Assembly: GCA_000004695.1 (NCBI GenBank) | Contig: CM000150.2 | Span: 4,640,001-4,704,000, forward strand | Direction of reading: 5' to 3' | DNA length: 64,000 bases | Source of the DNA: Dictyostelium discoideum | Taxonomy: Eukaryota | Part shown: in pieces, positions 1,717-62,819 of the stretch | Layout of the letters: every line of letters begins with the position of its first letter | How positions within the stretch are numbered: position 1 is the stretch's first letter | Program-made: the position numbers and the translations under genes | Notes under the pieces: generated by a model | The model's database searches: none | What the model saw: only the letters and a program-made list of their open reading frames with translations | What the model was told of the DNA's origin: nothing

Positions 1717-3879
1717 ATGAAAACAAATTTCACACCACCATCAAAAATAATTAAAAAGAATATATTTGATTTAACATTTACAATTAATAGTTTACCAACA
1801 CATTTAATTAGAAAGATATTATCATATTATTATAATCACTGTTTATCAATGTATGAGTATATTGAAAAGAGTAAAGGTAGTCAATTCTCAGGATATAAAT
1901 TAAGATTTCGTTGGATGGATTTATGTTTAGTTTGTAAATTTTGGATGGAAATGGTTATGCCGTACCTACCGAATACATTCTATTTTATGGATTCTCAGCA
2001 AAAGTTGGAAACCTATTTAAATCTATGTGAATATGGTGGCACGTTTCCAAGACGTTATTTAAAGCAAACTGTACTTCGTGTATCAAAACCACCAGCTTCA
2101 ATAAAGAAATACCCATTCCACATAAACTCGCTAGCAATTTATATCAATCGTTATCAAATGCCAAATCATTATCAGCCAGATACAATCATACCAGAATTTA
2201 TCTATCAACAAATCTTAAAGATATCACCAGACTTGAAGAATCTTAAATTTCAAACTGCAAAAACTGAAAAAGATTTATACTACCTATTGAAATCAATTAA
2301 TGAATCTATAACTCAATCGATTACACCATTACTATCATCATTGAATTTCGATTATTCAATATTTTCAGCCTCAATGCTTTATCAACTTTGTAAAATAATA
2401 GAATCACCAAATTGTACTATTACAAATCTATCATTAAACAATTGCACTTTGTCAACCAATTCATTAGGTGAATTTAGTGATGGCATCATTGATGATGGTG
2501 ATGATGATACAAAAGTTTCATTCATTACATCATTTAAAAAGAATAAATCAATTACAACTTTAAAAATGAATGAAAATAATTTCTTTACAAATTCAAAATC
2601 ATCAAAGAATAGAATTTTAATGGGTGGCACAATTTTACAATTTTTAAAATTGGTTTTAGTAGATTCAACTTCAATTTCAAATTTTCAATTCAATGGTAGT
2701 GAAATATTTTTAGATGAATTAAATAATGAATGTAATAAAATCAATTATCTAACACCAATGCAATCATCATTTGAAAAACTATCATTATCCCTATTGAATA
2801 TTGATAGTTTCTTACCATATTTAGAATATTTAATCACTAGTTCAAGTAATAGTATTAAAGAATTGGATCTTTCTCATTCAAGATTTTCAAATTATTCAAA
2901 TTTAAATAATTTATTAATTTCAATTCAACATTGTCAATCATTATTAAAATTAAATTTATCATCTTCTTCATTTAATATAATTGAAAATTCAAATAATAAT
3001 AATAATAATGTTGGTTTTATTCAACATCCTCAACCACAACAACCACCATTACCACCACAACAACAACAAGATTTTAATGGAAATGGTGGTGATGATGATG
3101 AATTTTTTGATGAAAATGGTGGTGGTGGTTTTGGTGGTAATAATTTTGATGCAAATTCAACAAATGCTTTTAATGAAAATTTTAATGATCAAACTTTATT
3201 TAATAGATCACCAATTGGTTGGGAAAGATTTAGTTTTTTATATGGTACACAATCGTTGATTTCAATTAATTTATCATCGATTAGAATGAGAGATGAAAAA
3301 GAGATGAACTCATTATTTCAATCATTGTGTGGTTCACCTCAAATTCAACAACTATATTTGAATAGATGTGGTTTAACAAGTGGTTGTTTAACTCAATTAA
3401 CCAATTTCATTAGACAACCAAATTCAAAGTTAGAGCTATTACATATTGGTAGTAATGGATTGGGTGGTGGTGGCTCGTCAATTCAAATTCTATTAATGGC
3501 ATTTCAATTAAATAAATCATTAAGTGATATCGATTTATCCTATAATAGTATGACTGATATAGAGGGTTATCATATTGCAAACTTTTTAAAATCAAATGTA
3601 TATGGTGATAAACAACAAATTAGACATTTAAATCTTTCTGGTAGTAGTTTTAAATTGGGTGCAATCAATCAATTGGGTCATGCTCTAATGACCAATAATT
3701 CTTTGGTCTCTTTAAACCTTTCAAATATTCAAATGGGTATGTTGGAAATTACCTATATCTTTGATGCTTTGGTCTCTCATCCAACTATCTCTTTATTAAA
3801 TCTTTCAAATGTTGGTTCAAATGAAATGATTACTTCTTTAGTTCAAACTTCTGCTTTGCGTTGTAATGTAATTTATTAA
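1717..3879 (+). CDS. F-box / leucine-rich-repeat (RNI-like LRR) protein, single exon, 720 aa.
   Basis: The N-terminus LPTHLIRKILSYYY...WMDLCLVCKFWMEMV fits the F-box consensus (LP..i...IL..L, VCK.W). The C-terminal half has repeated LxxLxLSxN/LxLxxN units (LNLSGSSFKLGAINQLGHALMTNNSLVSLNLSNIQMG, LLNLSNVGSNEM) like ribonuclease-inhibitor-type LRRs. Low-complexity N/Q/G inserts are typical of Dictyostelium. The sequence is a long ORF with A-rich flanks. Confidence 0.75.
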   Translation: MKTNFTPPSKIIKKNIFDLTFTINSLPTHLIRKILSYYYNHCLSMYEYIEKSKGSQFSGYKLRFRWMDLCLVCKFWMEMVMPYLPNTFYFMDSQQKLETYLNLCEYGGTFPRRYLKQTVLRVSKPPASIKKYPFHINSLAIYINRYQMPNHYQPDTIIPEFIYQQILKISPDLKNLKFQTAKTEKDLYYLLKSINESITQSITPLLSSLNFDYSIFSASMLYQLCKIIESPNCTITNLSLNNCTLSTNSLGEFSDGIIDDGDDDTKVSFITSFKKNKSITTLKMNENNFFTNSKSSKNRILMGGTILQFLKLVLVDSTSISNFQFNGSEIFLDELNNECNKINYLTPMQSSFEKLSLSLLNIDSFLPYLEYLITSSSNSIKELDLSHSRFSNYSNLNNLLISIQHCQSLLKLNLSSSSFNIIENSNNNNNNVGFIQHPQPQQPPLPPQQQQDFNGNGGDDDEFFDENGGGGFGGNNFDANSTNAFNENFNDQTLFNRSPIGWERFSFLYGTQSLISINLSSIRMRDEKEMNSLFQSLCGSPQIQQLYLNRCGLTSGCLTQLTNFIRQPNSKLELLHIGSNGLGGGGSSIQILLMAFQLNKSLSDIDLSYNSMTDIEGYHIANFLKSNVYGDKQQIRHLNLSGSSFKLGAINQLGHALMTNNSLVSLNLSNIQMGMLEITYIFDALVSHPTISLLNLSNVGSNEMITSLVQTSALRCNVIY

Positions 3880-5144: not shown

Positions 5145-6184
5145 AATAGATACAACATGTTTTTCACCATTTTTCAATCATCCAAATATGAATCATATTT
5201 TACCATATTTAAATATTATTCATATCGAAGCACCAGGTCATGAATTTAATGCAGAAACCATTCCATCATCACAATATCCATCAATTACTGAAATGGCTGA
5301 AGACATTCAATATGTTTTAGATTATTTTAAGTATGTAGTATATATATAAATTAAAATATTTTACATTTTCTAACATGTAACTTTTATTTTTTATTTTATT
5401 TTTTTTTACTTAGGGTTAAAGTATTTATTGGATTAGGTGCAGGTGCAGGTGGTTGTATTTTAACACAATATTCAATTTTTTATCCAAGATCAGTGGTTGG
5501 TTTAGTTTTAGTTGGTTCAGTTATTAAATCATTTAGTTGGTTAGATTGGGTTAAATCATGGGTTGAATTAACAACATTACCATCTTTAAAAAATCCAACT
5601 GGTGTTAGAAAATATCTTATTGATCATTATTATGCTGATGTAAGCTTAGAGGATTTTTTTTATTTTTTAATTTTTATTTTTAAAATTTTCATTCTAATAT
5701 ATTTATTTTATTTATTATCTATATATTTAGAATTTAGAAGAAACCAACCCAGATTTATTAGAGATAATTAAAAAGGAAATGGTTTTAATTAATCCAGATA
5801 ATTTATATCATTATGTTCATTCATTTGTAAAGTGAGTAGTAAAATTAATATATATATATATATATATAAATTAATTAGATTTATGGTTATTAACAAAATA
5901 ATAATAATAATAATAGGAGAGATGATATTAAAGAAGAACAAATTAAAGCATTAGGATGTAAAATTTTATTAGTAGTTGGTAAAGATTCAACATATAAAGA
6001 GGATATCATTGATTTATTCTCACAATTTAATCCAAGAAATTCAACTATTCTTCAAGTTCCAGATTGCGGTATTTTGGTAACTGCTGAGAAACCAGGTGAT
6101 ATCGTAGAACCATTTAAATTATTTATGCAAGGTATTGGTTTCTTATTGGATTATTATCAAAGTCATGACGATGCTCAAAAATAA
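4690..6184 (+). CDS. NDRG-family (N-myc downstream-regulated, alpha/beta-hydrolase fold) protein with 5 exons: 4690..4894, 5150..5330, 5414..5639, 5731..5831, 5917..6184.
   Basis: Exon 1 encodes ...KHGKLVCFQKIGSNQSPNMPTIISYHDLGLN, matching the NDRG motif YHD(I/L)GLN. Exon 2 encodes HTTCFSPFFNHPNMNHILPYLNIIHIEAPGHEFNAETIPSSQYPSITEMAEDIQYVLDYF. Exon 3 encodes VKVFIGLGAGAGGCILTQYSIFYPRSVVGLVLVGS...DWVKSW. Exon 4 encodes NLEETNPDLLEIIKKEMVLINPDNLYHYVHSFV. Exon 5 encodes KILLVVGKDSTYKEDIIDLFSQFNPRNSTILQVPDCGILVTAEKPGDIVEPFKLFMQGIGF and then stops. The donors are GTATGT/GTAAGC/GTGAGT and the acceptors are (t/a)nAG, all phase-consistent. The ORF-track pieces at 4690 and 5493 are fragments of this gene. 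Confidence 0.8.
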
Positions 6185-6244
6185 TACATATTAAATAAAT
6201 TTTATTTTTTTTATTTTTATTTTTTTTTTTTTTATTTTTTAATT

Positions 6245-6275
<31 letters not shown>

Positions 6276-6537
6276 TTAGATTCTTATTATTTTTTTATTT
6301 TTTATTTTATTTATTTATTTTTTTTTTTTTTGTTGGGTTCTATTGTTTCTTTGAGAATTCTTTTTTTTTTTTTTTTTTTTTTGAACATTGTTTTAAATTA
6401 ATTTTAATTTATTTTTATTTTTTTTTATTTTTTTATTTTTTTTGGAAAAATGTTTTATTAATTAATTTTTTAATTTTATTTTCTTATTTTTATTTTTTAT
6501 TTTTTTTTTTTTTTAATGAAAATTTTTAATTATTTAA

Positions 6538-6978
6538 ATGCTTTCTTCTAAATTTTTTTCATTGTATTCAAAAACAAAGTTATTAAAATCAACAACATCA
6601 AATTTTATATTATTTAATAAATTAAAGTACAGTAGTAACAATCAAGATTTCGAGAAAAGATTTTTTAAAATGTCAGATAACAAAACAACAACAACAACAA
6701 CGACAGCTACATCAACATCAACACCAACACCATCAACATTAAATGATAAATCGACTATAAAAACAACTCCAATAACAGATAATAATAATAATAATGAAAA
6801 TTTTAAATATACAAATAAATTAATAAATGAAAAATCACCATATTTATTAAAACACGCTCATAATCCAGTTGATTGGTTGCCATGGGGAGAAGAGGCTTTT
6901 AAAATTGCAAGAGATAATGATAAATTAATATTTCTTAGTGTTGGTTATATGGCATGTCATTGGGTAAGTAAATAGTAA

Positions 6979-16612: not shown

Positions 16613-16992
16613 AATATTTAATCATGAGATAATATTTTTTTATTTTCTTAAATAAAATAATTACTCCAATAAAAATTTAGTTTTCTTTATTTCTACTTTT
16701 TTTTTTTTATTTTTTTTATTTTTGGTGTAGTAATTATTTTATTTTTGTTTTTATTTCTATTTTTTCAACCTCATTAACTCTCCTCTGTCTTAATTAGAAT
16801 TAAAACAAGTAAAAAAAAATTTCAAATAAATTAATTTTTACCAGCACACTGTTAATAATATTTTTTTTTTTTTTTTTTTTGGGAGATCTAACCACAACCA
16901 ACCTTTAATGTGGTTATTATTTTTTTTTTTCAGTGATTTCAAATTTTTAATATAAATTGATTTTTACAATAATAATAATAATTAATAATAAT

Positions 16993-17054
<62 letters not shown>

Positions 17055-17130
17055 TAATAATAATAATAAAAATAATAATAAACTGAATTGGAGAGCACTA
17101 AAATTATTAACTTGTAAAAAGTTTTTTTGA

Positions 17131-17190
17131 AGTAATTATCTCACAAGTATGGGTTAAAATTAATTTACGTTTTTATCACCCCAACAGTTT
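17131..17190 (+). promoter_or_regulatory. Conserved upstream element of the small-secreted-protein gene family, 180-240 bp 5' of the ATG.
   Basis: The element at 17131-17190, agtaattatctcacaagtatgggttaaaattaatttacgtttttatcaccccaacagttt, is about 85% identical to the reverse complement of 52388-52495. It is also found at 56740-56838 and a second time at 56877-56978. Confidence 0.5.
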
Positions 17191-17371
17191 ATTAAATAAA
17201 TTAATTTTTTATTTATAAATAATTAATATTATTTTTTTTTTTTTCTATAATAATTAATATTATTATTTTAGGTATTTAAACAATTATAAAAAAAAAATTA
17301 ATTTCATTTTCAAAAAATTTTATTCAATTGTAAATAACCAATTAAAATAAAATAAATTATTAAATTTAAAA

Positions 17372-18181
17372 ATGAAATTATTATTAGTTTTATTATCTCT
17401 TCTTTTAACATTTTCAGTATTGGTACAATCTGAAGAAGCCTATTTTGCTTTAAAAACCTATCAAGACAATGATTTTATTTTCAAATTAACTGATTCAGAA
17501 AAAATACAAAAAGCCAGAGATATTTTGTCTGGAAGTATGTTATAAATTTTAACAAACTTTAATAATAATAGTAACAATATACACGATTTTATAAAAATAT
17601 CCATATGCTAAAAATATTTTTTTATTTTTAAAATATAGAGGAAACTGAAGAAGTTCATGTAATGGGTAGAATTAGAAAGTCAAATAAAGACTATAATCCA
17701 AGTAAATATTGTTTTGACTTTTAATTAATTTTTTTATAATTATTTTACTAATTTCATTTCATCACTTATAGAGTATTCCTTTCATATTGACCCAGATACA
17801 GTCACATTTTTCAGTATGGCCATTGAAGTTTGTGATGCTACAGCTAGTTATGTAGAAGATTACCTTGATGAGGCCTGTGGTGGTGAGTATTTTAATATAT
17901 AAATTATAAAATTTTAATTAAAAACTAATACAATATTATTATTATTATTATTATTATTATTTTTTTTTATTTTTTTTTTATTTTTTTTATAAAATAAATA
18001 ATAGCTTTCCTCCCAGGGTATGTATTTAATTAAATATAATTTTGAAAAAATTAAAAACTACAATTTGATTAACACATATTTTTTTATAAAAAAAAAAAAT
18101 ATATATATAAATAATAAATGATTCAATAGTTGCTTCTGGTGTCCATGGGCTTCAAAGCTAACAAAAGAAATTAAAGTTTAA
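17372..18181 (+). CDS. Small secreted protein, about 135 aa, paralogous to the genes at 51403..52188 and 55724..56533. Five-exon model: 17372..17534, 17639..17701, 17772..17882, 18004..18016 (a 13-nt micro-exon), 18130..18181.
   Basis: Exon 1 encodes [55 protein letters not shown] (a signal peptide) and ends at GTATGT in phase 1. Exon 2 encodes [21 protein letters not shown] and ends at GTAAAT. Exon 3 encodes [38 protein letters not shown] and ends at GTGAGT. The micro-exon CTTTCCTCCCAGG encodes AFLPG and ends at GTATGT. Exon 5 encodes CFWCPWASKLTKEIKV and then stops. Exon lengths of 163/63/111/13/52 match the two paralogs almost exactly. Confidence 0.7.
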
Positions 18182-50186: not shown

Positions 50187-50444
50187 ATGACACAAAACAT
50201 AAAAGAAAAGAATACTCACAATCACCATTATCAGTAATCAATATATAGAAGATACTCAATTAATTAGAGCTTTACAAAGAGTATTACCAGCTAAAATTCT
50301 CAAAGAGATTGAAGGTGATTTAACACAATTTGGTGAACGTGTTGTTAAGGATATTTTAGAATTAGGTAGAGCTTCTGAAAATAATCCACCAAAATTAATT
50401 CAATATGATGCATGGGGAAAGTAAGTTTTTCATTTATTTCTTTA

Positions 50445-50481
<37 letters not shown>

Positions 50482-51199
50482 TAATAATAAAAAATATTAA
50501 AAAAAAATTAAATAGGAGAATTGATAAAATTGTAGTTGATGAATCATGGAATAAATTAAAAGATATTGGATGCTCAGAAGGATTAGTATCAATTGGATAT
50601 GAAAGAAAATATCAAGAATATAGTAGAATTTATCAATATATAAAGATTTATTTATTTGCATGTTCATCAGCAGTATTTGATTGTCCAATGTCAATGACTG
50701 ATGGTGCAGCACGTTTAATTGAATTGTATGGTGATAAAGGAATGAAGGAGGATGAATATAAACATGAAGGTCAATGGATGACAGAGAAAACTGGTGGATC
50801 TGATGTTTCAAAATCTGAGACCATTGCTGTTAGCAGTGGTAGTGGTGATGGTAAAACATGCAATCTTAGTGGTTACAAGTTATGAATGGCGATATGGAAT
50901 ACGCAGAATCTAATTCACGTAGATTCGCTTATTTAATGGCTCAAACTTATATGGCATCGCTTTTATTAGAACATGCAGTTTGGTCAAAGGATGAATTGGA
51001 TGCTCAGGTCGCTGAAAGATGGTGTTTTGTTAAACTTGAAAATGGAAAAACTAATAAAAACTCTACAATTTCATTCACTGATGTTGATGAAAAATGGAGA
51101 GAATTAGACATTAAATTAGCTTTGGATTTAAATGAACATGGTCAACCAAAATTAGGTACCTATGATATTAATTCAACAAAATTAAGATCAAAATATTAA
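50187..51199 (+). pseudogene. AidB-like acyl-CoA dehydrogenase pseudogene, the degenerate duplicate of 53514..55492.
   Basis: Exon 1 carries a 33-bp deletion and a frameshift, giving MTQNIKEKNTHNHHYQ* with a premature TAA at about 50235. Exon 2 (50515-50885) lacks FISRDPKTFWTS. It jumps from ...CNLSGYK directly to VMNGDMEYAESNS... via an internal deletion of about 900 bp that creates a stop (GYKL*). The C-terminal 105 codons (50882-51199) are otherwise identical to the intact copy. Confidence 0.65.
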
Positions 51200-51261
51200 T
51201 AAAACAATAAAATGTTGTATAAAGAAATTAAAAAAAAAAAAAAAAGATCCTTTTTAAATAA

Positions 51262-51295
<34 letters not shown>

Positions 51296-51402
51296 TATTT
51301 TTTTTTTATAAAAACTTTTGTTTAATAAACTTTATTATTAAATATTTAAGTATTTAATTTGATTAAATTTAATCATGAGTAATTTAATTTTACTCTTATA
51401 GT

Positions 51403-51592
51403 TTAAATTTTAATTTCTCTTGTTAGTTTTGAAGACCATGGGCACCAGAAGCAACTATCGAATTATTTATTTTTTATATATTTTTATTTTTTTTATTTTT
51501 TATTTTAAAAAAAAAAATTAGTAAATTAATCGAATTGTATTTTTCAAAATTTTATTTAATTAAATACATACCCTGGGAGGAAAGCTATTATT

Positions 51593-51658
<66 letters not shown>

Positions 51659-52188
51659 TATTAGTTTTAAATAAAAAGTTTAAATTTTATATGTTATAAT
51701 ACTCACCACCACAGGCCTCATCAAGGTGATCTTCTACATAAATAGTTGAAGCATCACAAACTTCAATAGCCATGGAAAAAAATGTGATTGTATCTGGGTC
51801 AAGAATAAAGGAATACTCTATAAGTGATGAAATGAAATTAATAAAATAATTATAAAATAATAATTAAAAGTCAATAGAATATTTACTTGGATTATAGCTT
51901 TCAGGTCTCTTTCTAATTCTACCCATTACATGAACTTCATTGGTTTCCTCTATTTTAAAAATTAAATAAAAATATTGTTAACAATATGAATGTTTTTTTG
52001 TTAAAAATAATATAAAACTTACTTCCAGACAAAATATCTCTGGCTTTTTTAATTTTTTCTGAATCTGTTAATTTGAAAATAAAATCATTATGGTCACCAT
52101 GGGTTTTTAAACCAAAATAGGCTGTTTCAGATTGTACCAATACTGAAAATATTAAAAGAAGAGATAATAAAACAAATAATAATTTCAT
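51403..52188 (-). CDS. Small secreted protein, a paralog of 17372..18181. Five exons: 52188..52023, 51949..51887, 51817..51707, 51594..51582 (13-nt micro-exon), 51454..51403.
   Basis: The protein is [56 protein letters not shown] | [21 protein letters not shown] | [38 protein letters not shown] | AFLPG | [16 protein letters not shown]. The donors are GTAAGT/GTAAAT/GTGAGT/GTATGT. Exon sizes of 166/63/111/13/52 are the same as the paralogs. Confidence 0.7.
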
Positions 52189-52387
52189 TTTTTAATTGAG
52201 TTTTTAATTTGTTGTTTATAATTGAATTTGAATTTTAATTTGATAATGAAATAATTTAATTTTCAATTGTTTAAATACTTTTGGAAAAAAAAGAATAATA
52301 ATAATAATTATAATTAATATTAATTATTAATTAAAAAAAAAAAAAAAATAATAATATTAATTATTATTATTAATAAAAAATAATTTC

Positions 52388-52486
52388 CAAACTTCTAGGA
52401 TGATAAAAACGTAAAATAATTTTAACCCACACTTGCGAGATAATTACTCCAAAACTTGTAATTTTATCCAATTGGGTGTGTTATTA

Positions 52487-52495
<9 letters not shown>
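52388..52495 (-). promoter_or_regulatory. Conserved upstream element of the small-secreted-protein gene, 200-300 bp 5' of ATG 52188. It contains CCCACAC and GGGTGTG boxes about 47 bp apart.
   Basis: The element is conserved with 17131-17190 (inverted copy). In copy B it is tandemly doubled (56740-56838 and 56877-56978). Confidence 0.5.
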
Positions 52496-52557
<62 letters not shown>

Positions 52558-53372
52558 TTTTATTTGTTTTATTTTTCTTTTTTTTTTTCATAATAAAAAA
52601 ATCTTCACGCAAAAAACACCACACATCCAATTAAAAAAAAAAAAAAAAAATCTTTCTGTGAAGATTTAATAAATCTAATTATTATAATTTAATGACAAAA
52701 AAAAAAGGATAATTATATAATTAAATTGAAATTTCTTTGAATTTTTTATAGTGAAAATTATATATTATTAATTTTTTTTTTTTTGAAAAAAAAAGAAGTT
52801 CTTAAAAATAAAATTGATGACTTTTTTTTGAAAATCTTGTTTTGATGATTAGGGGAAAATATCTAAAAAAATCAAAAAAAAAAAAAAAAAAAAAAAAAGT
52901 TTTATTAAAAAAAAAACAAAAAAAAACAAAAAAAAAAAGTATTTTTGTCTTCTTTTAATTTGTTCAAATCAAAATAAATTTATTTTGTTTATTTTATTTT
53001 ATTTTTATTTATTTTTTATTTGATTTTATTTTTTTTATATAAATATAATTATTTTTTTTTTTTTTTTAATAAGCATATAAAGTTAAATAAAAAAAATAAT
53101 GGAGACATTATTATAAATAAAAACATCAAAAGAATACTATAGAAGGAAAATATTTTCTGGTTTGAAATTTCAATATTTTATTTTTTAATTTTTATTATTT
53201 TCCAAAAAAAAATTACGTTTTGATGATTTTTTTTTTATTACCATCTTTCTGTTTAGGATTAATAAATTAAGGAAAATATGTCGCTATTTTTTTTTTCAAT
53301 TTCTAATTTTTTAATTTTTAATTTATTTTATTTTTTTTTTTTTTTTTTTTAAAAATTTTTTTTTTTAAATTT

Positions 53373-53406
<34 letters not shown>

Positions 53407-53513
53407 CTTTTTTCATATATCTCTTTTTTTTTATTAATCTTATTTAATATTTATTATTATTATTTTTTTTGTTTAAGAAACAAAAAAAAAAAAAAAAAAA
53501 AAAAGTATTAAGA

Positions 53514-53806
53514 ATGGCCCAAAACATAAAAGAAAAGAATACTCAAACTGGTTATTCTGGTAGAGAGTATTTCCAACAACAATCACCATTATTAGGTAAT
53601 CAATATATAGAAGATACTCAATTAATTAGAGCTTTACAAAGAGTATTACCAGCTAAAATTCTCAAAGAGATTGAAGGTGATTTAACACAATTTGGTGAAC
53701 GTGTTGTTAAGGATATTTTAGAATTAGGTAGAGCTTCTGAAAATAATCCACCAAAATTAATTCAATATGATGCATGGGGAAAGTAAGTTTTTCATTTATT
53801 TCTTTA

Positions 53807-53840
<34 letters not shown>

Positions 53841-55492
53841 TAATAATAAAAAATATTAAAAAAAAATTAAATAGGAGAATTGATAAAATTGTAGTTGATG
53901 AATCATGGAATAAATTAAAAGATATTGGATGTTCAGAAGGATTAGTATCAATTGGATATGAAAGAAAATATCAAGAATATAGTAGAATTTATCAATATAT
54001 AAAGATTTATTTATTTGCATGTTCATCAGCAGTATTTGATTGTCCAATGTCAATGACTGATGGTGCAGCACGTTTAATTGAATTGTATGGTGATAAAGGA
54101 ATGAAGGAGGATGAATATAAACATTTCATATCACGTGATCCAAAGACATTTTGGACAAGTGGTCAATGGATGACAGAGAAAACTGGTGGATCTGATGTTT
54201 CAAAATCTGAGACCATTGCAGTTAGCAGTGGTAGTGGTGATGGTAAAACATGCAATCTTAGTGGTTACAAGTATTTCACATCAGCAACTACCTCAGAGGG
54301 TGCAATGGTATTGGCAAGAGATGTTGACGATGCAAAAACCATGAAAGGTGCAGTTGAGGGATCCAGAGGTTTATCAGTTTACTTTATAAAATTAAGAAAA
54401 CCAAATGGTGAACTCGATCGTATTCAAGTTCACAAGTTAAAGAATAAATTTGGAACAAAAGCAGTACCAACCGCAGAACTTGAGTTAATGGGTACACCAG
54501 CAGTTAGAGTTGGACCAAAAGGTAGAGGTGTACCAGTGATTGCCTCCATATTAAATATCACTAGAATTCATAATGTAATCCATTCAGCAGCCACAATGAG
54601 AAGATGTGTTGCAATTGTAAGAGATTTCGCTCATCGTCGTACTGTATTTGGTAAATTATTAAAAGATAACTTATTATATCTTTCAACATTGGCAGAGATG
54701 GAATTAGAATTTAGAGCTAGTTTACATTTACTTTTGGATGTTACCTTATTGTTGGGTAAGAGTGAACGTATTGTTGAAAAACAATCATCAAATAGTGAAG
54801 AACAAAAACAAATTGACCTCCTATTACGTATTGTTACACCACTTTCAAAATTGTATACTGCAAAACAAAGTGTTACAGTCGCATCAGAGGCTATTGAAGC
54901 ATTGGGTGGCACTGGTTATATGGAAGATTCCGATATGCCACGTCTATTTAGAGACACTCAAGTAACATCGATTTGGGAAGGTACAACCAACGTTTTATCA
55001 ATGGATATTTGGAGAACCTTAAAAGAACCATTAACAATTAAATTCTATTTCCAATCAATTGAAAATCGTTTAATTCAAGCAAATAAATTATTAAATAATG
55101 ATAACAATATTCAAAAAGTTATTTCAGTAATTAGAGAAGCAATGAAAACTATTCGTTCAGTTATTGATAAAGTTATGAATGGTGATATGGAATACGCAGA
55201 ATCTAATTCACGTAGATTCGCTTATTTAATGGCACAAACTTATATGGCATCGCTTTTATTAGAACATGCAGTTTGGTCAAAGGATGAATTGGATGCTCAG
55301 GTCGCTGAAAGATGGTGTTTTGTTAAACTTGAAAATGGAAAAACTAATAAAAACTCTACAATTTCATTCACTGATGTTGATGAAAAATGGAGAGAATTAG
55401 ACATTAAATTAGCTTTGGATTTAAATGAACATGGTCAACCAAAATTAGGTACCTATGATATTAATTCAACAAAATTAAGATCAAAATATTAA
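53514..55492 (+). CDS. Acyl-CoA dehydrogenase family protein of the AidB type. Two exons: 53514..53782 and 53875..55492.
   Basis: Exon 1 encodes MAQNIKEKNTQTGYSGREYFQQQSPLLGNQYIEDTQLIRALQRVLPAKILKEIEGDLTQFGERVVKDILELGRASENNPPKLIQYDAWG and ends at a GTAAGT donor (53783-53788) in phase 2. The acceptor aaatAG sits at 53873-53874. Exon 2 encodes KRIDKIVVDESWNKLKD...GQWMTEKTGGSDVSKSETIAV...KYFTSA...ELMGTPAVRVGPKGRGV...ALGGTGYMEDSDMPRLFRDTQVTSIWEGTTNVLSMDIWR.... The junction PPKLIQYDAWGK|RIDKIVVDESW aligns with E. coli AidB PPELLRYDAQGRRLDDVRFHPAW. MTEKTGGSDV aligns with AidB MTEKQGGSDV. LPRLFRD..V.SIWEG..N aligns with AidB LPRLYREMPVNSIWEGSGN. I prefer the ATG at 53514 over the track's upstream Met at 53469. 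Confidence 0.85.
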
Positions 55493-55555
55493 TAAAACAA
55501 TAAAATGTTGTATAAAGAAATTAAAAAAAAAAAAAAAAAGATCCTTTTTAAATAA

Positions 55556-55616
<61 letters not shown>

Positions 55617-55723
55617 TATTTTTTTTTTATAAAAACTTTTGTTTAATAAACTTTATTATTAAATATTTAAGTATTTAATTTGATTAAATTTAATCATGAG
55701 TAATTTAATTTTACTCTTATAGT

Positions 55724-55905
55724 TTAAACTTTAATTTCTCTTGTTAATTTTGAAGACCATGGGCACCAGAAGCAACTATCGAATTATTTATTTTTTATAT
55801 ATTTTTATTTTTTATTTTAAAAAAAAAAAATTAGTAAATTAATCGAATTGTATTTTTCAAAATTTTATTTAATTAAATACATACCCTGGGAGGAAAGCTA
55901 TTATT

Positions 55906-56004
<99 letters not shown>

Positions 56005-56533
56005 TATTAGTTTTTAATAAAAAGTTTAAATTTTATATGTTATAATACTCACCACCACAGGCCTCATCAAGGTGATCTTCTACATAAATAGTTGAAGCAT
56101 CACAAACTTCAATAGCCATGGCAAAAAATGTGATTGTATCTGGGTCAAGAATAAAGGAAAACTCTATAAGTGATGAAATGAAATTAATAAATAATTATAA
56201 AATAATAATTAAAAGTCAATAGAATATTTACTTGGATTATAGCTTTCAGGTCTCTTTTTAATTCTACCCATTACATGAACTTCATTGCTTTCCTCTATTT
56301 TAAAAATTAAATAAAAATATTGTTAACAATATGAATGTTTTTTTGTTAAAAATAATATATAACTTACTTCCAGACAAAATATCTCTGGCCATTTGAATTT
56401 TTTTGGAATCTGTTAATTTGAAAATAAAATCATTATGGTCACCATGGGTTTTTAAACCAAAATAGGCTGTTTCAGATTGTACCAATACTGAAAATATTAA
56501 AAGAAGAGATAATAAAACAAATAACAATTTCAT
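55724..56533 (-). CDS. Small secreted protein, copy B paralog. Five exons: 56533..56368, 56294..56232, 56163..56053, 55897..55885 (micro-exon), 55775..55724.
   Basis: The protein is almost identical to the 51403..52188 copy. Exon 1 is [56 protein letters not shown]. It has the same splice signals and the same 13-nt micro-exon, cctgggaggaaag, on the plus strand. Confidence 0.7.
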
Positions 56534-56975
56534 TTTTTAATGGAGTTTTTAATTTGTTGTTTATAATTGAATTTTAATTTTAATTTGATAATGAAATAAT
56601 TTTATTTTCAATTGTTTAAATACTTTTGGAAAAAAAAATAATAATAATAATTATAATTAATATTAATTATTAATTAAAAAAAAAAAAAAAAATAATAATA
56701 TTAATTATTATTATTAATAAAAAAAATATTTTCCAAATTGCTAGGATGATAAAAACGTAAAATAATTTTAACCCACACTTGCGAGATAATTACTCCAAAA
56801 CTTGTAATTTTATCCAATTGGATGTGTTATTATTTTTATTATTATTATTATTATTATTAATAAAAAAAATAATTTCCAAACTGTTGGGATGATAAAAACC
56901 TAAAATAATTTTAACCCACACTTACGAGATAATTACTCCAAAACTTGTAATTTTATCCAATTGGGTGTGTTATTA

Positions 56976-57006
<31 letters not shown>

Positions 57007-57434
57007 TTTTATTTGTTTTATTTTTTTTTTTTTTTTTTTCATAATAAAAAAATCTTCACACAAAAAACACCACACATCCAATTAAAAAAAAAAAAAAAAT
57101 CTTTCTGTGAAGATTTAATAAATCTAATTATTATAATTTAATGACAAAAAAAAAGGATAATTAAATAATTAAATTGAAATTTCTTTGAATTTTTTAAAGT
57201 GAAAATTATATGTTATTAATTTTTTTTTTTTTTTTTGAAAAAAAAAGAAGTTCTTAAAAATAAAATTGATGACTTTTTTTTGAAAATCTTGTTTTGATGA
57301 TGATTAGGGGAAAATATCTAAAAAAAATCAAAAAAAAAAAAAAAAAAAAAAAAAGTTTTATTAAAAAAAAAACAAAAAAACAAAAAAAAAAAAAAAAACC
57401 CTCAAACTCAATTTCCAAAGCAAAATCTTAAACA

Positions 57435-60538: not shown

Positions 60539-61021
60539 ATTAATTATTAATTATTATTAATTATTAATTATTATTTTTTTTTTTTTTTACCCACAAAATC
60601 CAATCAAAAAAAAATAAAAAAAAAAATTAAAAAATAAAAAAAAAAAAAAGTTTTATAAATATAATAATATAATAATATTTGATAAATAATTTATTATATT
60701 TATTTCCTTTATTTTATTTATTGTTTTTTTTTTTTTTTTTAATTTTTTTTTTTTTTTTTTTTTATATTTTTTTTTATAATATTCTTTTATTTATTTTTCA
60801 GAGTAGAAAAATTAAAATTAATTTGAAAATTATAAAAAAAATGAAATTCCTTTTTTATTTTTTTTATTTTTTTTTTTTTTTTTTTTTTTTTCATTTTTTA
60901 TTTTTTAATTTTTTTATTTTTAATTTATTTTTTTATTTTCAACAACACACAAACTCATAAACAATTACAACTATAGGGGTTTAATATTACAATACCAATA
61001 GCATATATATAATTTTAAAAT

Positions 61022-62819
61022 AAATAAAACTATGGAAGACCCTGATATTTTATCAAACTTTTTATCAATTACAGGTTGTGATGATTCTTCATTGGCTACA
61101 ACCATTTTAGAGGTAACGTAATTATGGAAAAATAAAAATAAAAAAAAAAAAAAAAAAAAATTAAAAAATTAAAGGCTAACTTCAAATAAACATATTTTAA
61201 AAAAATATTTGCACAAAAAAAAAAAAATTAAAAAAATAAAAATAATAATTAAAAAATAGAACAATAATTGGGATGTTGAAAGAAGTGTAGATTTCTTTTT
61301 TACAATGAATGATCCATCAAATGTGAAACCAACAACATCATCAAAAAAGACATCATCCCCACCAACAGCATCATCATCATCAGCATCATCAGAATTTGAC
61401 TACAATGAAGATGAATTCAGAGATCCAATTCCTCAGAAAATGGATAAATTAGTAGATCACTATTATCAACCAACTCAAAGAAGTTACCAAAAACAAACCA
61501 ATGTCTTTGAGGCATTTAGAGATTTTGAGAAAGAAAGAGGTATAAGTATGTTTATTAATATTTTTTAAAATTTGATTTGATTTTATTTTATTTTAAATTT
61601 AATATTTATATATTTTTTTTTTTTTTTATTTTTTATTTTTTATTTATTTTTATAATTTTTTTTTTTTACAAAAGATCAAGATAAGGCAACAGAAAAACAA
61701 AAATCACTATCAGAATTATTTAAACCACCATTAGATATATTAACATTTGGAACATTTGATGAAATTAAAAAGATGGCGGAACAAAAGAAATATTTTGTAT
61801 TAGTAAATATTCAAGATGTTCAAGAATTTGATTGCCAAAAATTGAATAGAGATACATGGTCAAACAAAGATTTAAAAGAGTTAATAGGTGAAAATTTTGT
61901 ATTTTGGCAAGTGAATAGTGCAAATCCTGAAGGAAAATGGTTCACTCAAATCTATCCAGTTTTTAAATTTCCTTATATTGCAATCATTGACCCAAGAACA
62001 GGTCAAAAATTACAAGATATGACTGGATTTATAGATGCAGAAGAGATGGCTCAATATTTGGTTACATTTTTATCAACAAATTCTTTCAGTGGTCAAATTG
62101 ATCCACCACCATCATCCTCTTCATCTGGTGCCTCTAAAAAACAAAAGAAATACAACACAGAAGATGAAGAATTAGAATTAGCAATTGCGTTATCATTAAA
62201 ACAAGAACAAGAGAGAAATTCAAAAAGTGGTTCAACCTCACCACTATCACAACAACAACAACAACAACAACAACAAAATAATAATAATAATAATAATAAT
62301 AATAGTAACAATAATAATTCAACTTCAACAACAACTACAACATCAACTACTACTACTAAAATATTGGGAACAAATAATAAAAAAGATGAAAAAGAAGATG
62401 AAGATGATGTTGAAGAAAAAGATGAAGATTTTGAAGATGATGATGAAATTGAAGAGGATAACTATGATGATAATTATTATTACGGAGAAACAGTTCAAAA
62501 AGAAATATCAGAAGAAGAACAAAAGAAAGTTGAAATTAAACAACTCGTTGAGAAAATACAAGTTACCAGTAAAATTGGTACTGAAGGTGATTGCATCATT
62601 CAAGTTAGATGTCCCGGTGGTGAAACATTAAAAGGTCAATTCCATAGCCATGATCAAATTAAAAATATCTACTATTATGTTCAAGTTAAAACTGGTATTT
62701 CAAATTTCAAACTATTTACCTCTTTTCCAAAGCTTGACTTGTCTGGTGAATTAATGTCCAAAACTTTAAAAGAATTAGATTTGGCACCAAGAGCTGTTCT
62801 TAATATGCTACAAGAATAG
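61022..62819 (+). CDS. UBX-domain protein with UBA-UAS-UIM-UBX architecture (UBXN7/UBXD7-like p97 adaptor). Three exons: 61022..61102, 61260..61545, 61675..62819.
   Basis: Exon 1 encodes MEDPDILSNFLSITGCDDSSLATTILE and ends at a GTAACG donor. Exon 2 encodes NNNWDVERSVDFFFTMNDPSN.... Together these form the UBA-like fold (f..iTg.....A...Le...WdlE.Av..ff). Exon 2 ends at a GTATGT donor (61546) in phase 1. Exon 3 contains the UAS thioredoxin-like region (KKYFVLVNIQDVQEFDCQKLNRDTWSNKDLKELIGENFVFWQVNSANPEGKWFTQIYPVFKFPYIAIIDPRTGQKL). It also contains the UIM (EDEELELAIALSLKQEQE), a poly-Q/N/T linker, and the C-terminal UBX (IIQVRCPGGETLKGQFHSHDQIKNIYYYVQ...FKLFTSFPKLDLSG...LKELDLAPRAVLNMLQE*). Confidence 0.8.

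Follow-up and report, generated by a model that had tools for sequence, protein, structure and literature searches.

A conserved upstream module, putatively cis-regulatory, of the cmbC/BP74_N small secreted-protein genes of Dictyostelium

We identify a compact upstream module shared by three paralogous small secreted-protein genes within a window of 64,000 nucleotides, the whole stretch of DNA analyzed here, which a protein search places on chromosome 1 of Dictyostelium discoideum AX4. The module has a defined internal anatomy, is conserved across species at distances where introns are saturated, and precedes genes with a common developmental and cAMP-dependent induction. We propose that it is probably a conserved cis-regulatory module (upstream activating region) of the cmbC/BP74_N genes, a putative function to which its conservation and the co-expression of these genes point.

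In the proposed mechanism, short predicted protein-binding blocks, S1–S4, whose order and orientation with respect to the gene do not vary, would be bound by sequence-specific factors that switch a silent promoter on during aggregation and mound formation. S4 would act as the core determinant, with the G-boxes adjusting level or timing in an auxiliary role, possibly as sites for GBF. The module would travel with its gene at duplication, and it appears to have been duplicated itself at least three times independently: in AX4 copy B, at locus L004 (452 bp apart), and in D. dimigraforme, where S4 alone is repeated (44-bp tandem). In Dictyostelium, where extreme AT-richness hides regulatory DNA, few promoters have been dissected. 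A compact, footprinted module of ~100 bp in front of genes that go from silence to being among the more abundant developmental transcripts could be used as a substrate to identify the factor(s) acting downstream of cAMP, GtaC or GBF, and as a strong inducible promoter element; it changes no concept.

Gene family and anatomy of the module

The genes of copies A, B (cmbC) and C have five exons each and encode products of 133–134 residues with a signal peptide and a BP74_N domain (PF23621, E 6e-52). CmbC was found by proteomics in conditioned buffer and in the slug sheath (review PMC7079120), in agreement with secretion. Protein searches also return bacterial and fungal proteins at 65–75% identity to the Dictyostelium BP74_N proteins, with matches in myxobacteria (Sorangium, Stigmatella, Archangium), actinomycetes (Nocardia, Nocardiopsis, Streptosporangium), one cyanobacterium, and Mucorales fungi. 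Such unusually high identity and the patchy distribution of BP74_N suggest that horizontal transfer may have occurred among soil organisms.

An earlier note, made from the window sequence, had described a block of ~100 bp upstream of each paralog that is doubled in copy B and stands out as a GC island, and these descriptions hold. The element spans ~95–115 bp and lies 150–310 bp 5' of every ATG; it is present twice upstream of cmbC as the result of a 144-bp tandem duplication; and its GC content is 20–24% compared with 3–13% in the flanks, making it an island in relative terms (Table 1). Read in the sense of the gene, all D. discoideum-complex copies share the order (AAT)n, S1 ACACCCAATTGG, S2 TTTGTAAAGATG, S3 AAGTGTGGGTTAAAAT, S4, TATA box, ATG. 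S4 reads ACGTTTTTATC[A/T]TCCCAACAGTTTGG, and its opposite strand presents a WGATAR core (TGATAA/AGATAA) adjoining an AACNGTT palindrome; the sole change seen in the WGATAR core leaves the consensus intact. We infer that these cores may be assignable to GATA and Myb-like factors. S4 is positioned at -150 to -225 relative to the ATG, with 80–135 nt from its start to the TATA box, which itself lies at -68 to -108 in copies from the D. discoideum complex, from D. citrinum and D. dimigraforme, and from D. firmibasis, where it takes the variant form GTATTTATT in one copy.

Table 1. Genes, module units and associated elements of the three paralogs, in window coordinates
Feature	Position	Strand	Details
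Copy A gene (DDB_G0271074)	17372-18181	+	
Copy B gene, cmbC (DDB_G0269116)	55724-56533	-	
Copy C gene (DDB_G0270788)	51403-52188	-	
Module, copy A	17084-17193	+	S1 position degenerate, no C-rich box; S2 ACTTGTAAAAAG; S3 CTCACAAGTATGGGTTAAAAT (box broken); S4 ACGTTTTTATCACCCCAACAGTTTATT at 17167-17193; profile match E 1.5e-24
Module, copy C	52387-52480	-	Gene-sense S1 CACACCCAATTGG at 52468-52480; S2 remnant; S3 CTCGCAAGTGTGGGTTAAAA at 52420-52439; S4 ACGTTTTTATCATCCTAGAAGTTTGG at 52387-52412, AACAGTT part mutated; KGKGKGK matches at 52425, 52473, 52475; nhmmer match 52381-52481, E 3e-25
Module, proximal B unit	56733-56826	-	S4 ACGTTTTTATCATCCTAGCAATTTGG, degenerate; S3 GTGTGGGTT at 56770-56778; S1 CACATCCAATTGG, degenerate box
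Module, distal B unit	56876-56969	-	S4 AGGTTTTTATCATCCCAACAGTTTGG, AACAGTTTGG intact; S3 GTGTGGGTT at 56913-56921; S1 CACACCCAATTGG at 56957-56969
TATA-like box, copy A	17272-17280	+	GTATTTAAA; 100 nt before ATG
TATA-like box, copy C	52270-52278	-	Same 9-mer, GTATTTAAA
TATA-like box, copy B	56615-56623	-	Same 9-mer, GTATTTAAA
Tandem duplication, copy B	56693-57001		144 bp; 56693-56859 vs 56837-57001, 93% identity
(ATT)n microsatellite, copy C	52482-52557		Abuts distal edge of module
Microsatellite counterpart, copy A	16961-17083		
Microsatellite counterpart, between B units	56827-56860		
Microsatellite counterpart, distal to B	56971-57015		
Further G-box-type site, copy C	52619-52625	-	TGTGTGG; ~437 nt upstream of C
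Further G-box-type site, copy B	57070-57076		Counterpart of the copy C site
Inverted repeat, copy C side	52594-52668		ATCTTCAC...GTGAAGAT
Inverted repeat, copy B side	57046-57118		

The earlier note had described paired CACAC/GTGTG boxes in all copies, but they are not present in every copy, and the view that they define the element is not supported. In copy A, CCCACAC is replaced by CCCATAC and the distal box is absent, the proximal B unit reads GGATGTG, and the S4 block (ACGTTTTTATC..AACAGTTTGG) is better conserved than the boxes. Among 11 copies, column agreement is 0.97 in S4a and 0.98 in the TTAAA flank, compared with 0.90 in the S3 box and 0.79 in S1, and the stretch of highest agreement (0.97–0.98) runs from GGTTAAA through ACGTTTTTATCATCC. 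It is therefore S4, at the edge of the interval first described, and not the CACAC/GTGTG pair that forms the core of the module.

Individual blocks have been lost or altered in several lineages. The S3 box is missing from AX4 copy A and its positional orthologue L001, and S1 is additionally lost in AX4 copy A. A 14-nt deletion removed S2 in the cmbC lineage (AX4 B, AX4 C, and L002), and L005 retains only S3 and S4. Within S4, CCTAG(A/C)A replaces CCCAACA in copy C and the proximal B unit, yet copy C, its S4 partly mutated, is still induced several hundred-fold. With S2 deleted in the cmbC lineage and S4 partly mutated in C and proximal B while C remains inducible, no single block is shown to be necessary. 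Copy A with its lost boxes, the cmbC lineage without S2, C with a mutated S4, and B with two units are natural variants that together offer a ready-made mutational series.

Almost all paralogs and species that we examined, D. citrinum and loci L001–L007 (~3500–3750) among them, have an (AAT/ATT)n microsatellite abutting the module distally; the position of this microsatellite is conserved and its length, from ~10 to >100 repeats, is not. The junction of the B duplication falls within an ATT-rich repeat, an arrangement that suggests the doubling may have come about by unequal exchange or slippage between the AT-rich repeats flanking the module. Further upstream of B and C, the inverted repeat listed in Table 1 encloses a poly(A) run and the G-box-type site (AATTGGATGTGTGGTGT) and is partly conserved, with that site, in L002 (~3540–3620) and L006. 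This inverted repeat belongs to a region held in common with the divergent neighbors, a cytochrome P450 gene for B and an acyl-CoA dehydrogenase (ACAD) gene for C. Copy-A type and cmbC_ps2 type loci have a second upstream block distal to the microsatellite, GGGAGATCTAACCACAACCAACCTTTAATGTGGTTATT ... GTGATTTCAAATTTTTAATATAAATTGATTTTTACAATAAT (window 16878–16960, L001 3568–3650, L005 3566–3680), with an invariant 6-bp inverted repeat, AACCAC/GTGGTT.

Whole-window repeat finding was swamped by low-complexity families, and duplications are described from a blastn self-comparison of the window. Copies B and C lie inside a ~2-kb segmental duplication that is 94–95% identical end to end. The duplicated segments pair 50218–51199 with 53469–55492 and 50877–52938 with 55170–57395, forming a complex segmental duplication. 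A full AidB-like ACAD gene occupies 53469–55492 on the plus strand; the second ACAD copy, at 50218–51199, is truncated and internally deleted, with pieces up to 98.9–99% identical to the full gene, and a BP74_N gene follows each. Since the syntenic loci L002 (another D. discoideum assembly) and L004 carry a single BP74_N gene beside a single ACAD, copy C and the ACAD fragment look like a recent duplication in the AX4 lineage.

The module stays with the BP74_N gene whatever the upstream neighbor (P450, an NYN-domain gene, or others). The AidB-like ACAD gene that shares the upstream region of copy C, tentatively DDB_G0270786 at ~4.686–4.688 Mb of chromosome 1, is vegetative-biased and shows no co-induction, which supports a module that serves the BP74_N gene. 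On the other side of the locus, the P450 gene (57677–59014, plus strand) is divergently paired with cmbC, and this pairing is kept in L002 (1650–3227) and in L009 of D. dimigraforme (5201–6781).

Developmental expression and candidate regulators

The prediction that this family is developmentally regulated is borne out by published RNA-seq, in which A, B and C show almost no expression in vegetative cells or at 0 h and are then induced, all three by several-hundred- to over a thousand-fold at 5–11 h. In the series of Parikh 2010, as tabulated by Kin et al. 2018 (PMC6198379) for 0, 4, 8, 12, 16, 20, and 24 h, expression of cmbC is 2.1, 74, 1290, 2452, 3177, 1388, and 918; that of copy A is 1.6, 29, 891, 2348, 3258, 1532, and 815; and that of copy C is 0, 0.8, 460, 984, 913, 306, and 165. 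Vegetative values are ~1 or less, and the three genes fall into one k-means cluster. B and C are strongly stalk-enriched, and cmbC-family transcripts are not prespore-specific. Hourly filter development (Rosengarten 2015, raw counts) resolves the onset further, with cmbC rising from 5–7 h and copies A and C from 9–11 h; in the Parikh series the timing of A and C parallels that of cotD. In suspension, where cells were pulsed with 30 nM cAMP between 2 and 6 h and afterwards given 300 uM cAMP, cmbC is induced during the pulses, whereas A and C respond modestly during the pulses and strongly after 300 uM cAMP.

Copy B, with two module units, is expressed 2.5–6 times higher than copy C, with one, and its onset is 2–3 h earlier. 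The suggestion that the doubling is an enhancer-dosage variant agrees with the higher and earlier expression of B, but the comparison is confounded, because copy C and the proximal B unit carry a mutated AACAGTT and because reads may cross-map between the 94%-identical copies. Natural copy number forms a series, with a single unit in C, two each in B and L004, and a tandem S4 in D. dimigraforme. We tentatively put forward a more specific model, which we hold to be possible and not likely as a whole: S4 would be a composite site for a candidate pair of developmental factors, a GATA-family zinc finger and a Myb-like factor, and this pair would be the on-switch of the BP74_N/cmbC family. The module would form an enhancer cassette that is portable and flanked by AT microsatellites; these would duplicate it again and again, and its copy number would tune the level and onset of expression.

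Among candidate regulators, GtaC has a measured effect on one of the genes. Wild-type cmbC expression rises from ~1 at 0 h to ~1600 at 5 h, compared with 3–5 at 5 h and 540–1130 at 8 h in the gtaC-null, and it never exceeds ~10 in a GtaC zinc-finger mutant (Santhanam 2015, PMC4506546). cmbC depends on GtaC for timely induction. Expression in the null recovers by 8 h, so this dependence may be indirect, and cmbC does not appear in the part of that study's list of putative direct GtaC targets that was covered here.

A different regulator was named in the earlier note, according to which a pair of G-box/CA-rich half-sites bound by GBF turns the genes on after aggregation, a reading that we regard as doubtful. 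A GBF-regulated element would be expected to hold at least two half-sites close enough to make up one binding site. S3 (TGTGGGT) and S1 (TGGGTGT/GGTGTGT) do fit the GBF half-site consensus (T/G)G(T/G)G(T/G)G(T/G) quoted in PMC2257962, and at least two such half-sites occur in copy C (52425, 52473), the distal B unit, and most orthologues, the proximal B unit having one site. The window contains 44 KGKGKGK matches compared with 27 ± 5 in shuffled sequence, 10 of the 44 lying in two short regions upstream of B and C, where a third G-box stands further upstream. G/C-rich boxes are kept at both positions (S1 and S3) in D. citrinum and D. dimigraforme. The rise of A and C at 9–11 h on filters, and again after 300 uM cAMP, is that of GBF-type genes, and the parallel with cotD has been noted above.

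Several observations weigh against GBF as the switch. No KGKGKGK match is present within 800 nt upstream of copy A, yet copy A has the same profile and amplitude of expression, and S3 is missing from its positional orthologue L001 as well. Conservation is lower in the boxes than in S4, and the S1–S3 half-sites are 43–57 nt apart, whereas described pairs are closely located (PMC2257962). cmbC is already induced by 30 nM cAMP pulses, and at 5 h in wild type, and C-rich boxes are also bound by DimB, which recognizes CCCCAC. As stated, the assignment to GBF is not supported, and it is weakened by a co-expressed copy A that lacks the site and by a cmbC that is early, pulse-induced, and GtaC-dependent; a role for GBF at the module is plausible but unproven.

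Cross-species conservation and readings without a regulatory role

Similarity inside the window is weak evidence of constraint, which is shown only by comparison across species. Copies B and C are 94–95% identical throughout, so their agreement carries no information, and A and C are 87% identical in the element core, inside the 73–94% range of their introns; within AX4 the element is thus not conserved above introns. These figures suit an account in which the element has no function and is the decaying remnant of a recent duplication or gene conversion, visible because G/C-containing sequence stands out from an AT microsatellite. We consider that account improbable, and it is largely refuted by the cross-species control described below.

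We compared the DNA around twelve homologues, some in other assemblies of D. discoideum or 'cf. discoideum' and the rest in D. citrinum, D. firmibasis, D. dimigraforme, D. purpureum, and P. violaceum; the D. purpureum homologue lies at a contig end, without upstream DNA. In distant species the module is misplaced by global pairwise alignment, so we searched with profiles; the one for the module was made solely from the 11 D. discoideum-complex copies and was run against both strands of 165 kb. The module profile matches only BP74_N upstream regions, always in gene sense. A weak match at 62000–62076 lies inside coding sequence and was discarded as chance. In species that did not contribute to the profile, it finds both D. 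dimigraforme genes (E 2.7e-7 and 9.4e-6) and the tandem S4 repeat of that species (5.5e-4), as well as D. citrinum (E 1.7e-4; range 4e-5 to 2e-4 overall).

As a control, identical segment-wise profiles were made for introns 1–4, the module-to-TATA spacer, the TATA-to-ATG stretch, the 3' flank, and the exons. The module (E 1.4e-7, 9.7e-6, and 3.7e-5) and all exons find their counterparts in D. dimigraforme and D. citrinum, whereas the profiles of introns 1–4, the spacer, the TATA-to-ATG stretch, and the 3' flank yield no positionally correct match in these two species. Intron identity to D. dimigraforme and D. citrinum is ~0.43–0.69, near or modestly above the unrelated-DNA baseline of 0.52–0.55. 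The module is accordingly the sole non-coding segment under detectable constraint. A functionless remnant sits poorly with a block that is found in the right place and orientation in species whose introns and flanks are undetectable.

The pattern of conservation within the module is that of our preferred reading, a cis-regulatory module. Its sub-blocks are collinear and variably spaced, with a 43-nt insertion between S3 and S4 in D. citrinum, an arrangement that would be typical of binding-site modules. Within the 165 kb, all 11 occurrences of CGTTTTTATC fall in BP74_N upstream regions and in gene sense, as do all 11 of AACAGTTTG, 10 of them in gene sense. WGATAR (TTATCA/TTATCT) is present in every D. 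discoideum-complex copy and in D. citrinum and D. dimigraforme, one tandem unit of L009b being degenerate. Conservation above neutral and an order, orientation, and position fixed relative to the gene characterize the element as a footprinted cis-regulatory module. The upstream regions of D. firmibasis and P. violaceum give no profile match, D. firmibasis retaining only copies of AACAGTTTG. The two tandem BP74_N paralogs of P. violaceum share an upstream block of their own, AAAAAAGATCCCATCAATCAAAACACTTTG(G/A)AA..AACAACACTG (L011 3757–3800 and 5247–5290), in which the part ATCCCA...ACACTTTGGAA is loosely like S4 (ATCCCAACAGTTTGGAA); it may be a very diverged counterpart of the module.

Some conservation continues between module and ATG, as it might if the block were transcribed within a long 5'UTR or belonged to an alternative first exon upstream, but we think this scarcely likely. 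In almost every copy the TATA box GTATTTAAA lies 80–135 nt downstream of S4 and 68–108 nt before the ATG, and an element upstream of a conserved TATA box is probably not 5'UTR. Moreover, no splice-donor-like site follows the block in copies A, B, or C, and the variable spacing of sub-blocks suits binding sites better than an exon.

Read away from the gene, AACCCACAC followed 51 nt later by GGGTGTG could be taken for the DUSE and TGTG box of a Class I-type small ncRNA promoter, a very improbable interpretation that we rejected because each defining feature fails: the DUSE consensus WCCCAHAA ([AT]CCCA[AT or CT]AA) is unmatched, the copies reading ACCCACAC or ACCCATAC and none of its 14 window matches lying in the element; downstream there is only the (ATT)n microsatellite of highly variable length; the exact Class I motif CTTACAGC is absent from the whole window; copy A has no TGTG box; and orientation is fixed relative to the protein gene. 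An Rfam scan of the window returned no family and a tRNA scan no tRNA, and neither strand of copy C or copy A, folded as RNA, outperformed shuffled sequences (z -1.7 to +0.4). Elsewhere in the window, one exact DUSE-consensus match, ACCCACAA (60589–60596, plus strand), also overlaps a KGKGKGK match.

Comparison with known systems

A literature search by gene identifiers and BP74 returned no promoter study of these genes, and a search by half-site returned nothing. We found no earlier description of these promoters, and we regard the module as ordinary biology that is not surprising; its closest precedent is the sigN family, discussed last.

Class I ncRNA promoters (Kjellin et al. 2021, PMC7919456) resemble the module in having a CCCA box and, ~50–60 nt later, a TGTG box. 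Such a promoter would be expected to have a Class I RNA, with its 5'/3' stem and CTTACAGC motif, or another ncRNA ~60 nt downstream or beyond a TGTG box, whereas the cmbC-family module does not match the DUSE consensus, is followed by no RNA gene, and takes its orientation from a protein-coding gene.

The cotC (SP60) prespore promoter combines GBF-binding CA-rich elements with an essential AT-rich element and CudA regions (PMC3253789). The present module likewise places G/C-rich boxes beside an AT-rich element, and the timing of its genes is similar to that of cotD. In contrast to cotC, cmbC-family transcripts are not prespore-specific and end strongly stalk-enriched; the likeness is one of architecture.

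GtaC-dependent early genes with GATA-like motifs (Santhanam et al. 2015, PMC4506546) offer a further parallel, as cmbC needs functional GtaC at 5 h and S4 contains a near-invariant WGATAR. cmbC differs in that it does not appear in the part of the list of putative direct targets covered here and in that its expression recovers in the null by 8 h.

The sigN Group 2 promoters (Vicente et al. 2008, PMC2257962) come closest. They too belong to a multigene family whose small protein products are induced in development, around the mound stage, and in which paralog upstream regions can be aligned and contain G-rich boxes of GBF consensus. In sigN the GBF-like sites form closely spaced pairs, and one member is documented to be GBF-dependent, whereas in the cmbC family the boxes are 43–57 nt apart and missing from one co-expressed paralog, and the best-conserved block, S4, is not a G-box.
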